This document shows, one piece after another, positions 1 to 4,240 of a DNA stretch of 64,000 nt; within the stretch, counting starts at the first letter, position 1; each line of letters opens with the position of its first letter. The notes beneath the pieces were generated by a model. The model was not told the origin of the DNA. It did no database searches and was given only the letters and a program-made list of their open reading frames with translations. Position numbers and translations under genes: made by a program. The stretch is from Clostridiaceae bacterium (GTDB lineage: Bacteria; Bacillota; Clostridia; Oscillospirales; Acutalibacteraceae). The stretch covers positions 1,871-65,870 of the forward strand of contig JAEDLK010000005.1 of the NCBI GenBank assembly GCA_016295355.1, read 5' to 3'.

Positions 1-850
1 TCTTCAATGCGTCCAAGGACTTTTGCTTACCGCCGTACAGACCCATCGGTTCTACATGGATAGCTGCCACGGAAACCAGGTGTGTCTTGTTTTCGGCGTT
101 AAAGTCATCCAAATACGGCACATGCTGGAAGTAGTTGGCATCAACCGTACCGTCCTCAACAACGTTATTCGGAACAACATAATCGTTATATTCCTGAATA
201 TCCAAGGTAATGTTCTTGGCCGACAGAATCTCCTTTGCCAGCTTCAAAATCTCAGCATGGGGTGTGGGAGAAGCGGCCACGCTGATGGTGGTGCCGGACA
301 AAGCGGCATAATCGACCGAATCATCATAGCCGTTACCGGGGTTCGCAACCACGCTGACCACGGCGCCGCCGTACTGATTGGTGATATAATCGGCAACGGT
401 TTTGCTGGACAACGCTGCAATCAAAGCCTTAATCTTGGGGGTAGCCTCATTGCCGGCCTTAACAGCCAAAATGTTACCGTAAGCGGAGGCAGAACCTTCA
501 ATTACCAAAGACTGCTTAACCGGATTAAGCCCGGCGTTGATGGCATAGTTGGAGTTGATGACGGCATAGTCGACATCCTGCAGCTGGCTGGGCAACTGAG
601 CAGCTTCGGTTTCAACAATTTCCACATTATAAGGATTCTCGACGATATCCAACTTGGTGGCGGTGATACCGGCGCCCTCTTTTAGCTTAATGATACCGTT
701 AGCCTCTAACAAAAGCAAGGCTCTGGCCTCGTTGGTGGTATCGTTGGGAACGGCAATTTGAATCTTGGCCGACTTGGAACCGCAACCGGCAAAAAGGGCA
801 ACTGTCAACAAAACGGCTAACAAACATGTGAACACTCTTACTTTTTTCAT
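1..850 (-). CDS. metQ: MetQ/NlpA-family methionine-binding lipoprotein (3' end runs off the window)
   Basis: Minus-strand ORF absent from the track because it leaves the window. ATG at 850. Signal peptide MKKVRVFTCLLAVLLTVALFAGC with lipobox. Family motifs IAVPNDTTNEARALLLL, ENPYNVEIVETEAAQLP and DANYFQHVPYL. Confidence 0.85.
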   Translation of the reverse strand, partial: MKKVRVFTCLLAVLLTVALFAGCGSKSAKIQIAVPNDTTNEARALLLLEANGIIKLKEGAGITATKLDIVENPYNVEIVETEAAQLPSQLQDVDYAVINSNYAINAGLNPVKQSLVIEGSASAYGNILAVKAGNEATPKIKALIAALSSKTVADYITNQYGGAVVSVVANPGNGYDDSVDYAALSGTTISVAASPTPHAEILKLAKEILSAKNITLDIQEYNDYVVPNNVVEDGTVDANYFQHVPYLDDFNAENKTHLVSVAAIHVEPMGLYGGKQKSLDALK

Positions 851-890
851 AATCATACGACCTTTCTTTTTTTAACATAAAACGATTCGT

Positions 891-953
891 TCAATAACAA
901 ATGAAAGATGTGTCCAAAGGACACATTCGCTCATGATATAAAAATCGTTTCAT
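891..953 (-). CDS. 20-codon sORF MKRFLYHERMCPLDTSFICY between the leader terminator and metQ (possibly regulatory)
   Basis: AAGGAG lies 8 nt upstream of the ATG at 953. The ORF encloses an 8-bp hairpin (908..926) followed by a U-rich tract. No homology evidence. Confidence 0.3.
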   Translation of the reverse strand: MKRFLYHERMCPLDTSFICY

Positions 954-980
954 AGCATTCTCTCCTTAAGAAAGTTTTAC

Positions 981-1012
981 AACAAAAATCGGGAAGCAAA
1001 ATGCTTCCCGAT
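981..1012 (-). terminator. Intrinsic terminator of the metQ leader
   Basis: Minus strand reads ATCGGGAAGC-ATTTT-GCTTCCCGAT (10-bp stem) followed by TTTTTGTTG. Confidence 0.7.
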
Positions 1013-1034
1013 CTCGTTTTGCTTTATGCGAGCC

Positions 1035-1142
1035 TTAGGCCACAGTCAAACAAGGAAAGCATTTTGAAAAATCTGCACGACGAAACATGCACATGGAACC
1101 CATGTACATACGCATCATCATAGAACGGCCTAACTTTTTCAT
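1035..1142 (-). CDS. 35-codon Met-rich leader peptide MKKLGRSMMMRMYMGSMCMFRRADFSKCFPCLTVA
   Basis: GAGGA RBS 8 nt upstream of the ATG at 1142. Seven ATG codons among codons 8-19 (1121..1086). Located between a consensus promoter and a terminator, upstream of metQ. Confidence 0.55.
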   Translation of the reverse strand: MKKLGRSMMMRMYMGSMCMFRRADFSKCFPCLTVA

Positions 1143-1175
1143 GTGGCTTTCCTCACTTTCTCAAGATTTTATGTC

Positions 1176-1204
1176 ATTGTAGCACAAAGCTCTTTGTCTG
1201 TCAA
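1176..1204 (-). promoter_or_regulatory. Sigma-A type promoter of the metQ leader
   Basis: Minus strand TTGACA (1204..1199), 17-nt spacer, TACAAT (1181..1176). Confidence 0.6.
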
Positions 1205-1368
1205 GCATTTTTTGGAAAAAATTCAAATTTGACGCATTGCAGCAAAGCAGCCCCCCCTGCTCTCCACCCCGATACCGGTGACAAACAAGGTGCCGGAACC
1301 GTCATACCGATGGATGGCATCAATGATAAAGAGATTATTATTCTTACTTGCATCCTTTTCGGGATTGA

Positions 1369-2058
1369 TTATGTTGTTTCTTCGGCTTTCTTCAAAGCCG
1401 GACGAATGGCCTCCATAAAGCGATCGGCAATTAGTTGCATACCCAAATCGCCCGGATGATTAAATCCACCGTGAGCATCCTCACGGTTGCGAATATCCTC
1501 AAGATTGATAAAGATGTCGCCGTACTGATCAGCCACAGCCTTCTTTTCGGCATCCAACACGGGACGGATATAAAAGCCCTGCGAAATAGCCACAACGGCC
1601 TTATTGTCGGGATTTAGATAATTCCGCAAATCCTCCACGGCCCGGCGGAAGGTCTTGGGAGGATTCTCCATGGTGTCATACTGCTTATCCACATTGGCCC
1701 CAAAGAACATAATGATGATGTCGGCTGCGAACTGACGGGCCAATTCATATCGGTCGGCCGGGGACATCTTGAAAAATTCCCATTCGTATCCTGCTACCTG
1801 CAAGATGGCAAATTCTGCCTTTGGATGACTTTTGAGAATTTCGGCCTGCATCAAATGAACATAATCCTTTTCAAGAGAAGAAGCACACATGCCGCAATCC
1901 CGATTCCAACCGACCTCGGGCTTGGGGGCGTGCTTGGTAATGGAGTTGCCCACAAACAGCACTCTGATACCACCCCTCTTCTTTCCGGGGAAAAAACTGC
2001 CGGGATTCTGATTGAGAACCGGGATGATATTTTCCTGAAAATCTTTCTTTTCATTCAT
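1369..2058 (-). CDS. SGNH/GDSL-family hydrolase
   Basis: Motifs VLFVGNSIT and GGFNHPGD. GGGGAG RBS 6 nt before the ATG at 2058. The track start at 2091 would overlap the upstream gene. Confidence 0.8.
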   Translation of the reverse strand: MNEKKDFQENIIPVLNQNPGSFFPGKKRGGIRVLFVGNSITKHAPKPEVGWNRDCGMCASSLEKDYVHLMQAEILKSHPKAEFAILQVAGYEWEFFKMSPADRYELARQFAADIIIMFFGANVDKQYDTMENPPKTFRRAVEDLRNYLNPDNKAVVAISQGFYIRPVLDAEKKAVADQYGDIFINLEDIRNREDAHGGFNHPGDLGMQLIADRFMEAIRPALKKAEETT

Positions 2059-2068
2059 ATTGACTCCC

Positions 2069-2779
2069 CTATTCCGCATTAAAAATTTCATCGGCTTCCT
2101 CGGCCGTTAATTTTCCGTAAGATACCATGCTGTCCAACACCTGACGATGGCGTTGCGCCGTCAGTGGTGTGTTGTTATCCGGTGAGTAAACGCTGGGAGC
2201 ATTTGGCAGTCCGGCCAAAAGGGTTGCCTGATGCGGTGTCAAATCAGACGGCGCAACCCCATAATAACCCATTGCCGCATCATAAAGACAATAATACCCA
2301 CTGCCGTAATAAATACTGTTGATATACACTTCCAAAATTTCGTCTTTGCTGAAACGCCTCTCAAGCTCAACCGACAAAAACAGCTCGCTGAATTTTCTCG
2401 TTAAAGACCGTTCCATGCCGAAATACAGATTTTTGGCCACCTGTTGAGTAATGGTACTGCCGCCCTCAACCAGATCGCCTCGTCTGATATTGGTGGCAAT
2501 TGCACGCAAAATGGACCAAACACTGAATGCACCGTGCTGATAATAGCGGTGATCCTCCACCGACACCACCGCCTCCTTATAGTAGGGCGGTAATTCGTCT
2601 ATGGTCACATAGTGCTCTTGATTTTTGATTTCTTCAAAGGCTGTTTCTACCGGTCTCTCTGCCACTGCCTGCCGGTAAATTCGATAGCCCGGCAAAGCAT
2701 ACCGCACGCCCACATAGCCGACCGCCAGCAAAATCATGCAGAGCAAAGCAAGCAGAATTCGTTTGATAACCTTTTTCAT
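2069..2779 (-). CDS. Monofunctional peptidoglycan glycosyltransferase (GT51)
   Basis: N-terminal TM helix. Motifs EDHRYYQH, GGSTITQQVAKN and RKFSE. At 236 aa it has no transpeptidase domain. Confidence 0.85.
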   Translation of the reverse strand: MKKVIKRILLALLCMILLAVGYVGVRYALPGYRIYRQAVAERPVETAFEEIKNQEHYVTIDELPPYYKEAVVSVEDHRYYQHGAFSVWSILRAIATNIRRGDLVEGGSTITQQVAKNLYFGMERSLTRKFSELFLSVELERRFSKDEILEVYINSIYYGSGYYCLYDAAMGYYGVAPSDLTPHQATLLAGLPNAPSVYSPDNNTPLTAQRHRQVLDSMVSYGKLTAEEADEIFNAE

Positions 2780-2798
2780 ACAATCCCCTATTTATGTA

Positions 2799-3299
2799 TC
2801 AGTAAGAGCGAATCGCCAGACTGTCATCGTCCTTGCCCTTGACAAGAGCGGTAATGACAGCGTGATAACCGCCGCCGTCCGTCTCAATATAGACCGTATC
2901 CCCGACCTTATGGCCCAGCAAGGCCTTACCAATGGGAGATTCACCGCTGACAATGTTTTCCATAACATCCTGCCGCATGGTGGTGGCCAGCCGAACCGTT
3001 TCCGGCTCATCCTCGTCCTGCGGCAAAAAGGTTACGGTATCAAACAGTCCCACGACATCAGACGGAGAATCATCGGTAACAATTACGGCGGTTTTAATCA
3101 TATTGCGCAAAAAGCGGATTCTGCTTTCATTTTTGCCCCGTTCTTGCTTAGCCGCATGGTATTCGGCGTTTTCGCTCAAATCACCGTGACTGCGGGCAAA
3201 CTTGACCTCCTCCAGTATACGAGGGCGCACCACCGAGATACGCCACTCCATTTCCTCGGTCATTTTTTGAATATCTACCTTTGTGAGTTCGTTATGCAT
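2799..3299 (-). CDS. greA: Transcription elongation factor GreA
   Basis: 166 aa. GDLSENAEYHAAK motif and a GreA C-terminal domain (SPIGKALLGHKVGD). Confidence 0.9.
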   Translation of the reverse strand: MHNELTKVDIQKMTEEMEWRISVVRPRILEEVKFARSHGDLSENAEYHAAKQERGKNESRIRFLRNMIKTAVIVTDDSPSDVVGLFDTVTFLPQDEDEPETVRLATTMRQDVMENIVSGESPIGKALLGHKVGDTVYIETDGGGYHAVITALVKGKDDDSLAIRSY

Positions 3300-3648
3300 T
3301 CTTTTGATCCTTCTTCTTTTTGACCATTGAGCCGACGAAGCCCGTTAACCCGGCCAACGGTTTGGAGCCGTCGGCCTTCGTCGGATGAAAGGACACCCGT
3401 CCGTTTTCAAACACCATATAGCAGACCGGCGTTTTTGTCACACCGGCTCCCGCACCGCCCGTCAAAGGAGTCGTGTCGGATTCGGCGTGTTCTATACCGG
3501 CTCCGGCAAAGCCGTACGACAGCTTATACACCGGTACCACACACACCCCGTCCACCGTGATGGTTTCACCGCACACGGAGTGGTCACGCAACGCCTTCTC
3601 GGCCATACCGGCCGTATCAAGAATCAGTTGATTGAGTTTGTTGTCCAT
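3292..3648 (-). CDS. ytfJ: Sporulation protein YtfJ (GerW family)
   Basis: Pattern VDGVCVVPVYKLSYGFAGAG...GGAGAGVTKTPVCYMVF matches YtfJ/GerW. Internal ATG at 3648 chosen with an upstream AAGGAG. Confidence 0.8.
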   Translation of the reverse strand: MDNKLNQLILDTAGMAEKALRDHSVCGETITVDGVCVVPVYKLSYGFAGAGIEHAESDTTPLTGGAGAGVTKTPVCYMVFENGRVSFHPTKADGSKPLAGLTGFVGSMVKKKKDQKNA

Positions 3649-4240
3649 GCTGAACCTTATCTCCTTTTCGATGATTCTTTTGCGATAATATCCCACCGAC
3701 TGTCGCCACAAGAAACATCAGAATCCAAATCGGGCGAATGCTTGCTTTGCCGAAGCATTTCAGATCGGCCTTTTGCGTTTCGTAATCGCACCAAATGCAA
3801 ACCTCGTCCATGGGAAGCCTCACCACCCCGTTAATGGCGGAAAGAAGGGGGTAGACCACGCCGCAGACAGTGCCGTATTCCAGCGCCGTCACGGCCGCAT
3901 CGGCCTCGCTCACCTTAATTTGAAGCGCAAAACGATGAACATGGACGTGTTGAAGCAATCGTTTAAGTCGGAGCAGCCACCCACGCACCTGCCCGGCCAA
4001 TAATTTCACGGTTTCAAGCAGTTTCTGCTTGGCACCGCGTTCTTCTTTTTCCTTTACCGGTTCTTTTTTCTCTTTTTTCTTTGAGAGAACAGCCGATTGC
4101 CCACCGATTCGATACGATAGAAACAAATACCGTACCCGGCCGGTCAAGCCGTTTTCCGGCGTATAATGCCACTCAAGCGACGCCGGAATCAACGGCAATG
4201 CCAAAAGCAAAAGAACCAAAGGCAGCCACCATAGTTTCAT
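3617..4240 (-). CDS. DUF2953 (YtfI-like) sporulation-associated membrane protein
   Basis: Signal/TM N-terminus and a Lys/Glu-rich linker. Sits immediately upstream of ytfJ, as in the Bacillus ytfI-ytfJ arrangement. Family assignment is from memory. Confidence 0.6.
   Translation of the reverse strand: MKLWWLPLVLLLLALPLIPASLEWHYTPENGLTGRVRYLFLSYRIGGQSAVLSKKKEKKEPVKEKEERGAKQKLLETVKLLAGQVRGWLLRLKRLLQHVHVHRFALQIKVSEADAAVTALEYGTVCGVVYPLLSAINGVVRLPMDEVCIWCDYETQKADLKCFGKASIRPIWILMFLVATVGGILSQKNHRKGDKVQHGQQTQSTDS

Follow-up and report, generated by a model that had tools for sequence, protein, structure and literature searches.

Leader-peptide attenuation is textbook knowledge for tryptophan, histidine, leucine, phenylalanine, threonine and isoleucine/valine. 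Methionine regulation in bacteria is attributed to S-adenosylmethionine (SAM) riboswitches, methionine T-boxes and the protein regulators MetJ, MetR and MtaR, and the SAM-I riboswitch (S-box) is the usual terminator-based control of methionine and cysteine genes in Firmicutes. The subject of the present analysis is a leader located upstream of metQ, a methionine-uptake gene, in a 64,000-nucleotide stretch of DNA from a Clostridiaceae bacterium (assembly GCA_016295355.1, contig JAEDLK010000005.1), hereafter called the window. This leader carries a short open reading frame (ORF) crowded with Met codons and followed by an intrinsic terminator, and it is probably a ribosome-mediated leader-peptide transcription attenuator of metQNI, keyed to Met codons and perhaps taking a second input from Cys codons. 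Attenuation through Met codons would fill a gap in the range of known attenuators and would add a rare case of classical attenuation in Clostridia. It also raises the question of a translated sensor whose limiting amino acid is the one that initiates its own translation.

The closest described systems are found on both sides of this proposal. Leaders with His codons precede hisS and hisZ in Firmicutes, and in some members of this phylum 'regular' leader peptides replace T-boxes (Naville & Gautheret 2010, PMC2965389). The ilv-leu operon of Staphylococcus aureus is preceded by a leucine-rich attenuator peptide (PMC5794164). A Met T-box is reported to control the methionine transporter of Lactococcus lactis (PMC7058034), and a survey of attenuation in Actinobacteria reported no attenuator upstream of methionine operons (PMC1262725). 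No description of a Met leader-peptide attenuator was found in Rfam, Pfam, NCBIfam or the literature searched, although many subscription papers lay outside reach and a prior description is possible.

The Met-codon leader and its conservation upstream of metQNI

All coordinates are positions in the window, and all leader features lie on the minus strand (Table 1). A sequence-only reading of this locus had placed there a promoter, a Shine-Dalgarno (SD) sequence, a leader ORF, a terminator and an antiterminator; the minus-strand sequence, the scans and RNAduplex locate all five where that reading had put them. The promoter matches the consensus at 11 of 12 positions and is the top promoter-like site of the first 3 kb in a consensus scan, and both its TTGACA and its -10 box align and are kept in relatives. 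The density of Met codons, which had been held to exceed chance, does so clearly: when all six frames of the window were scanned for 12 consecutive codons containing five or more ATG, the leader ORF was the sole site, with a maximum of seven, and 50 shuffled windows gave a mean of 0.04 such sites. The codon run would constitute the zone in which ribosomes stall. Folding of the 201-nt leader gives -69.4 kcal/mol, which corresponds to z = -5.3 relative to dinucleotide-shuffled sequences. A hairpin GACGGCTT...AAGCCG is found in many relatives at or near their leader stop, and the small hairpin found at this place in the window could act as a pause or ribosome-release feature.

Table 1. Features of the metQ leader region, listed by position in the window
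Feature	Positions	Strand	Details
Sigma-70-type promoter	1204..1176	-	TTGACA (1204..1199), 17-nt spacer with TGn extension, TACAAT (1181..1176)
SD GAGGA of leader ORF	1154..1150	-	7 nt 5' of the ATG at 1142
SD region GAGGAAAG	1154..1147	-	doubles as 5' strand of the outer helix with GCUUUCCUU (1060..1052)
Leader ORF MKKLGRSMMMRMYMGSMCMFRRADFSKCFPCLTVA	1142..1035	-	35 codons plus stop; 8 Met, 3 Cys; from the ORF list
Met-codon run	1121..1086	-	7 Met and 1 Cys in codons 8-19; Met at codons 8, 9, 10, 12, 14, 17 and 19
Region 1	1154..1100	-	5' half of anti-antiterminator hairpin (SD, start codon, first Met codons); minimum-free-energy (MFE) fold
Region 2	1096..1052	-	3' half of the same hairpin; antiterminator strand is the segment 1066..1054, CAAAATGCTTTCC
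Small hairpin UGUGGCC/GGCUCGCA	1044..1027	-	3-nt loop is exactly the leader stop UAA (1037..1035); MFE fold
Region 3, GGGAAGCATTTTG	1009..997	-	terminator 5' arm and loop; pairs with region 2 as antiterminator
Intrinsic terminator	1012..981	-	stem 1012..1002 with 998..988 (10-11 bp), U-tract 987..981 (TTTTGTT)
Second upstream ORF, MKRFLYHERMCPLDTSFICY	953..891	-	SD AAGGAGA 967..961
CGA-ATG-TGT	929..921	-	invariant; within second upstream ORF
Hairpin ATGTGTCC-TTT-GGACACAT	926..908	-	5' arm contains AUG
metQ	1..850	-	NlpA/Lipoprotein_9 substrate-binding lipoprotein; Pfam PF03180, E = 3e-75; start at 850, cut by window edge

Conservation was followed in 80 loci obtained by a MetQ-based scan with one genome per GTDB species (MetQ identity 66-82%). 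They belong to Oscillospiraceae-type Clostridia and include Oscillibacter, Vescimonas, Hominicoprocola, Brotocaccenecus and many metagenome-assembled genomes. Cultured candidate carriers of the leader are Vescimonas sanitatis MH37-1 (locus L019), Hominicoprocola fusiformis CLA-AA-H269 (L010) and an Oscillibacter isolate. A covariance model named R1, built from eight leaders, finds exactly one match in the window (977..1166, minus strand). The short ORF with its run of ATG, predicted to recur upstream of metQ, does recur: in 59 of the 80 loci, R1 detects one copy that lies directly upstream of metQ and shares its strand, 51 of these at 102-184 bits. Despite many insertions and deletions, each of the 59 copies retains an SD, placed 7-8 nt ahead of an ATG or GTG start, and a frame that stays open for 28-44 codons and includes 7-11 Met. 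The R1 leader is also present in 48 of 80 listed metagenome contigs that were fetched via an unrelated downstream motif. The same layout is carried by different sequences, such as MKRFLSSSMMMEMCMPMCMCMFSCAHNSHLLSQNA in locus L003 and MKRNVTMMMCEMCMGMMSMCMFRRAEKVISFPKTV in L019, and the divergent Met-rich leaders MTRSYFWMMSGMMRMMRTMGMRMSENSNDR (L075), MIFARLIMMMLGMGMAMYMCMRLTRAFRKS (L057) and MAKHSFTMNMMMRRHMEMCLPLLHTVSE (L018) have little nucleotide similarity to the window. R1 misses the divergent Met/Cys-rich leader ORFs and terminators of L081 and L042.

In a set of 56 distinct ORFs, 468 internal ATG triplets lie in frame 0 (95%), 23 in frame +1 and 1 in frame +2, and Met and Cys account for 23.6% and 9.5% of internal codons, Cys being roughly eight-fold enriched. 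By median, the internal Met codons begin at codon 8 and end at codon 21, with about 15 codons left before the stop. Across the family, the peptide core reads M..MMM.M.M..MCM and then (F/L)RR, with one MCM triplet nearly invariant; Met alone forms invariant columns, and mean column identity is 42% outside the Met/Cys core. These features amount to a strong comparative signature, and the leader ORF is probably translated. The Cys codons may provide a second, cysteine input, or their enrichment may reflect only the self-complementary ATGTGCATG repeats that build the apical hairpin; because the L075 leader has no Cys, Met is the common denominator.

Three loci show other arrangements upstream of metQ. 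In L056, a small ORF MKKGFTATAITATTMYTSMYMLFCAPLFNTLRENA, rich in Thr as well as Met, is followed by a terminator; L042 has a small ORF MCMRVSFLMFALCMCADDFMRACF... and then a terminator, and L055 likewise has a leader small ORF and a terminator. These three leaders may be divergent or differently tuned attenuators.

The leader is widespread in public data, where it goes largely unnamed. A profile of the peptide retrieves 209 clusters of public gene calls, and the 120 listed are all unnamed or 'hypothetical protein' and have no Pfam domain; one variant of the peptide has index entries in 1605 blocks of an assembly collection. A profile of the most divergent leaders gave six matches, such short ORFs rarely being called. 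Annotation could thus be improved for leader ORFs that are now either 'hypothetical proteins' or uncalled. The leader is common in abundant Oscillospiraceae of the human and animal gut, and it therefore bears on the competition of gut anaerobes for methionine.

In every context examined, metQ is followed by metN (ABC_tran and the NIL domain that is typical of MetN) and then metI (BPD_transp_1), and all contexts of Met leaders seen are metQNI. The gene upstream of the leader varies and differs, for instance, between the window and L082. Since the downstream genes are constant and the upstream neighbour changes by lineage, the leader belongs to the metQNI operon. In the window, a 240-amino-acid ORF (1369..2091, minus strand) lies directly upstream of the leader promoter, and a Pfam search with it gave nothing at E ≤ 1e-5; L001, the one public contig on which an identical leader peptide is called, carries this ORF too.

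Known RNA families do not account for the leader. All 4227 families of Rfam 15 were searched with cmscan against positions 1..3000 at E ≤ 10 with permissive filters, and no SAM riboswitch or T-box matched in this range, in agreement with the sequence-only reading. The search is able to find a T-box before metQ, since model RF00230 does detect one in L071, a locus without the Met leader: this T-box (3589..3840, 94.6 bits) has an AUG specifier (GAA-G-AUG-G) and lies directly upstream of the metQ orthologue. The only Rfam match at the leader, a sub-threshold sroE match at 938..1020, is simply the terminator hairpin. At gathering thresholds, the sole Rfam element of the whole window is a cobalamin riboswitch (RF00174, 39868..40076, plus strand, 38.7 bits). 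The leader peptides have no match in Pfam or NCBIfam.

Alternative helices and a model for attenuation

The antiterminator is formed by the pairing of AAAATGCTTTCC (1065..1054), in the 3' part of the leader ORF, with GGGAAGCATTTT (1009..998) over 12 bp including one G-U. RNAduplex extends it to 13 bp, 1066..1054 with 1009..997, at -18.3 kcal/mol, compared with -20.2 kcal/mol for the terminator (terminator scan and folding in the window). This helix overlaps the 5' arm and the loop of the terminator, and this overlap, together with covariation in the family, upholds the proposal that the two structures are mutually exclusive. The terminator hairpin 988..1012 also scores as a terminator on the plus strand, with an A-tract upstream and a T-tract downstream, and it may act bidirectionally.

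The predicted covariation of both helices was found in an alignment of 51 leaders. Only the apical hairpin and the terminator were constrained by the model used for this alignment, hence the other helices are unbiased by it. In the family, the antiterminator comprises three nested sub-helices with 17 pairs in total, joining region 2 to the base, the 5' arm and the loop of the terminator. It is paired at 88%, a value that falls to 38-60% if its 3' strand is displaced by 1-3 columns, and 7 of its 17 pairs show double changes (40 cells), a level of covariation reached by 0 of 500 shuffles. The terminator is paired at 96%, with double changes at 10 of 14 pairs. In most members, region 2 reads GGTCAT..CTTTCYG..CTGTT. 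The window is an outlier that lacks GGTCAT and has a different terminator loop, and the AAAATGC of its region 2 matches the new loop, GCATTTT. Loop and strand change together elsewhere as well, the consensus pair being GGTCAT/ATGACC and the L003-type pair AGCCA/TGGCT. Per sequence, the free energy of the 2:3 helix averages -16 to -17 kcal/mol, and terminators range from -17 to -26 kcal/mol.

One pairing of the sequence-only reading finds no support. The segment GCATGTTT (1090..1083) had been suggested to pair with AAAATGC as an anti-antiterminator, and it does so in no fold; in the folds, the 3' part of the ORF pairs instead with the SD and the start and early codons. These elements are predicted to form one long hairpin in the window, 1154..1100 with 1096..1052 (-37.2 kcal/mol for 1154..1052, MFE), composed of the helices 1154..1146/1060..1052, 1141..1135/1071..1065, 1121..1115/1083..1077 and 1109..1100/1096..1087. 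Its 3' half consists of the later Met codons together with the remainder of the ORF, and the same architecture is present in the MFE folds of 12 relatives. In the outer helix, the SD-proximal GAAAGC pairs with GCTTTC, the latter located inside the antiterminator strand; leaders of the L005/L010 type swap to GAAAGGA with TCCTTTC. This helix is likely, but less secure than the antiterminator and the terminator.

The comparative evidence supports the reading of this leader, placed before a methionine-uptake gene, as a Met attenuator, in which leader translation, stalling and a kinetic competition between helices would act as follows. The RNA would start about 7 nt past the -10 box, and a ribosome would load on the SD and translate the leader while the polymerase moves on. 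When Met-tRNA(Met) is ample, the ribosome would pass the Met codons, reach the stop and depart; region 1 would then pair with region 2 in the long hairpin, region 3 would pair with region 4, and transcription would terminate at 981. The 1:2 hairpin would also bury the SD, so that no further ribosome could load. When Met-tRNA(Met) is scarce, the ribosome, along with any queued behind it, would stall within 1121..1086 and cover region 1. Region 2 would stay free just outside the ribosome footprint and would pair with region 3 on its emergence, blocking the terminator and allowing readthrough into metQNI. The geometry of the family agrees with this part of the sequence-only reading, namely that a ribosome stalled in the Met run leaves region 2 free: in most members, about 21 nt separate the last Met codon from the beginning of region 2, and 0-8 nt lie between its end and the stop. 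The other part, that a ribosome at the stop codon masks region 2, is marginal here.

Several observations weigh against this model. The stop codon of the window lies 16 nt past region 2, and a terminating ribosome hardly masks it; the OFF state would therefore rest mainly on re-formation of the hairpin rather than on steric masking. When a 30-nt ribosome mask was placed on each Met codon or on the stop, equilibrium folding retained the terminator in nearly all members and states and so does not tell the states apart; the switch would have to be kinetic, with the order of synthesis deciding, as in textbook attenuators. A transcript ending at region 3 has the antiterminator as its MFE structure even without a ribosome, and the OFF state would therefore require earlier formation of the 1:2 hairpin. 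A shortage of methionine lowers initiator fMet-tRNA too, which could reduce initiation on the leader and favour termination. Shuffle tests are moderate, with z of about -1.75 for the 2:3 helix and -2.05 for the duplex between the SD region and region 2, and with p ≤ 0.05 in about half of the members; for the latter duplex, register shifts of the purine repeats among subgroups hamper column-wise covariation. Cognate 2:3 duplexes average -17.4 kcal/mol and non-cognate ones -15.0 kcal/mol, an effect in the expected direction and modest because even shuffled strands pair well if one is rich in pyrimidines and the other in purines; column covariation was therefore relied on instead. Finally, the ATG/TGC repeats are self-complementary and the invariant ATG columns also build the conserved apical hairpin. 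As Met has a single codon, selection on the RNA and selection on the codons are not fully separable.

A sequence-specific arrest peptide of the TnaC or SpeFL kind would sense free methionine, SAM or another small molecule instead of a shortage of charged tRNA(Met). The conserved peptide core would suit such a peptide, as would the amino-acid-level conservation of a second upstream ORF in the same 5' untranslated region (see below), which makes peptide-dependent control plausible. However, conservation outside the Met/Cys core is poor, only the Met columns are invariant, and distant members share Met richness alone. Moreover, arrest on abundant methionine would lead to induction by methionine, the wrong sign for an uptake operon, and a tRNA-charging sensor is marked by many codons for a single amino acid in scattered positions, as in the trp, his, leu and phe leaders. 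This explanation is thus unlikely.

It is also quite improbable that the leader is a translation-independent RNA switch, i.e., a riboswitch or a protein-binding leader in which the long hairpin is the sensor and the ORF is incidental. The outer helix 1154..1146/1060..1052 does resemble the P1 helix of an OFF-riboswitch, its 3' strand overlapping the antiterminator strand; the leader fold is stable (z = -5.3), and the apical hairpin is built of invariant ATGTGCATG repeats. Yet an incidental ORF would leave unexplained why all 59 copies, whose ORFs vary between 28 and 44 codons, keep the SD spacing, the start and a frame ending near region 2, why 95% of ATG triplets are in frame, and why divergent members alter nucleotides and hairpin details but retain Met richness. 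The fold shows neither the multi-helix junction nor the conserved unpaired pocket typical of aptamers, and Rfam holds no match.

A functional Met/Cys-rich small peptide, either metal- or redox-binding or the precursor of a peptide made on the ribosome and modified after translation (RiPP), followed by an ordinary terminator before metQ, is very improbable. Met/Cys-rich motifs can bind Cu(I), and over 1000 contigs have gene calls in which the leader ORF is a 'hypothetical protein'. Nevertheless, the leader always has a promoter on one side and metQNI on the other, its neighbourhood lacks modifying enzymes, exporters and metal genes, the peptide has no signal peptide, conserved C-terminus or Pfam or NCBIfam family match, and such a function would not explain why a covarying antiterminator overlaps the ORF in its 3' part. 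A drug-inducible attenuator of the erm/cat/msr type was rejected, since the downstream genes are metQNI and the only conserved feature of the leader is its richness in Met and Cys codons.

A second upstream ORF between the terminator and metQ

A second upstream ORF (uORF) follows the terminator (Table 1). It is present in at least 31 of the 80 relatives, some of them with a T-box or without the Met leader, and its carriers include L003, L005, L007, L026, L036, L042, L055, L056 and L071. What follows its invariant CGA-AUG is either a stop codon or UGU-CC. In 24 of the 80 relatives, the 10-mer GAATGYGTCC has a single occurrence, on the coding strand and at the position of the second uORF. In its 18-codon form, the uORF ends in CGA-ATG-stop (MKNFFEQLVRANFRFGRM, MKHILKRLVKANYRYERM, MKNLLAQLVKANSLNDRM), and the 18-amino-acid peptide, ...QLV[KR]AN[FY]R[FY][GE]RM-stop, is conserved in amino acids despite codon changes. 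The T-box-bearing L071 has the 18-amino-acid form 3' of its T-box, and L007, without a Met leader, has the longer, hairpin-bearing form.

The metagenome contigs mentioned above came from a scan with a 17-nt motif of the second uORF, and among the 80 matches listed, 48 have the Met leader 40-70 nt upstream and 32 do not. Of the latter, 11 were aligned and found to be unrelated DNA, the kind of chance match that a motif this short is expected to give. The hairpin of the second uORF shows one double change only, and its covariation is weak. Consistent sequestration of the metQ SD was not seen in the MFE folds, and the second uORF has no family in Rfam, Pfam or NCBIfam.

It can tentatively be proposed that the two ORFs form a two-stage, translation-based sensor of sulfur amino acids, although this remains a doubtful extension of the attenuator model. 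The Met/Cys leader would gate termination, and the second uORF, acting as a single-codon Met-tRNA sensor or as an arrest peptide responding to methionine or SAM, would gate the translation of metQ or the fate of its transcript. If this were true, a uORF that can be combined with either a leader attenuator or a T-box would represent a new kind of bacterial regulatory peptide. The second uORF is in any case an independent lead for such a peptide.

Comparison with known regulatory systems

Met T-boxes share with the window leader a high-affinity methionine ABC uptake target, what is probably the same signal of tRNA(Met) charging, an output through a terminator and an antiterminator and, in L071, the same position. 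Unlike the leader, which would use a translated ORF, a T-box works without translation, through direct binding of uncharged tRNA. The T-box of L071 would then be a different device for the same signal and would lend independent support to that signal. Its presence in the place of the leader echoes the interchange between leader peptides and T-boxes stated in PMC2965389.

The SAM-I riboswitch resembles the leader in its terminator-based control and in an OFF layout in which the 3' strand of P1 alternates with the terminator. It differs from it in that the leader matches no SAM model and has no four-way junction, and SAM-I responds to SAM and not to tRNA charging.

The window leader would share with the his and ilv-leu leaders of Firmicutes ribosome-mediated attenuation in Gram-positive bacteria, where T-boxes are usual. 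The latter leaders concern other amino acids and genes and bear no sequence relationship to the window leader, and PMC2965389 contains no Met case.

A further parallel is with the classical E. coli attenuators of amino-acid operons, trpL, hisL, leuL, pheL, thrL and ilvL. As in these systems, the window leader has an SD-preceded short ORF with cognate codons, the alternative helices 2:3 and 3:4, a likely 1:2 helix whose region 1 would contain the regulatory codons, an intrinsic terminator, and an antiterminator weaker than the terminator. The E. coli trp antiterminator is likewise the weaker of the two. Of the sequence-level features that define trp/his/leu-type attenuators, the leader thus has the ORF, the codons, the terminator and the antiterminator, and probably the 1:2 helix. 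Unlike the E. coli attenuators, it would rely on Met (and Cys) codons, occurs in a clostridial host and precedes a transporter rather than biosynthetic genes. Its region 1 includes the SD, its stop codon lies downstream of region 2 instead of upstream, and with 28-44 codons it exceeds them in length, its Met codons being distributed across some 12 codons. As far as could be determined, the mechanism would thus be a known one, and what is new is its amino-acid specificity, its unusual lineage, its transporter target and a region 1 that contains the SD.

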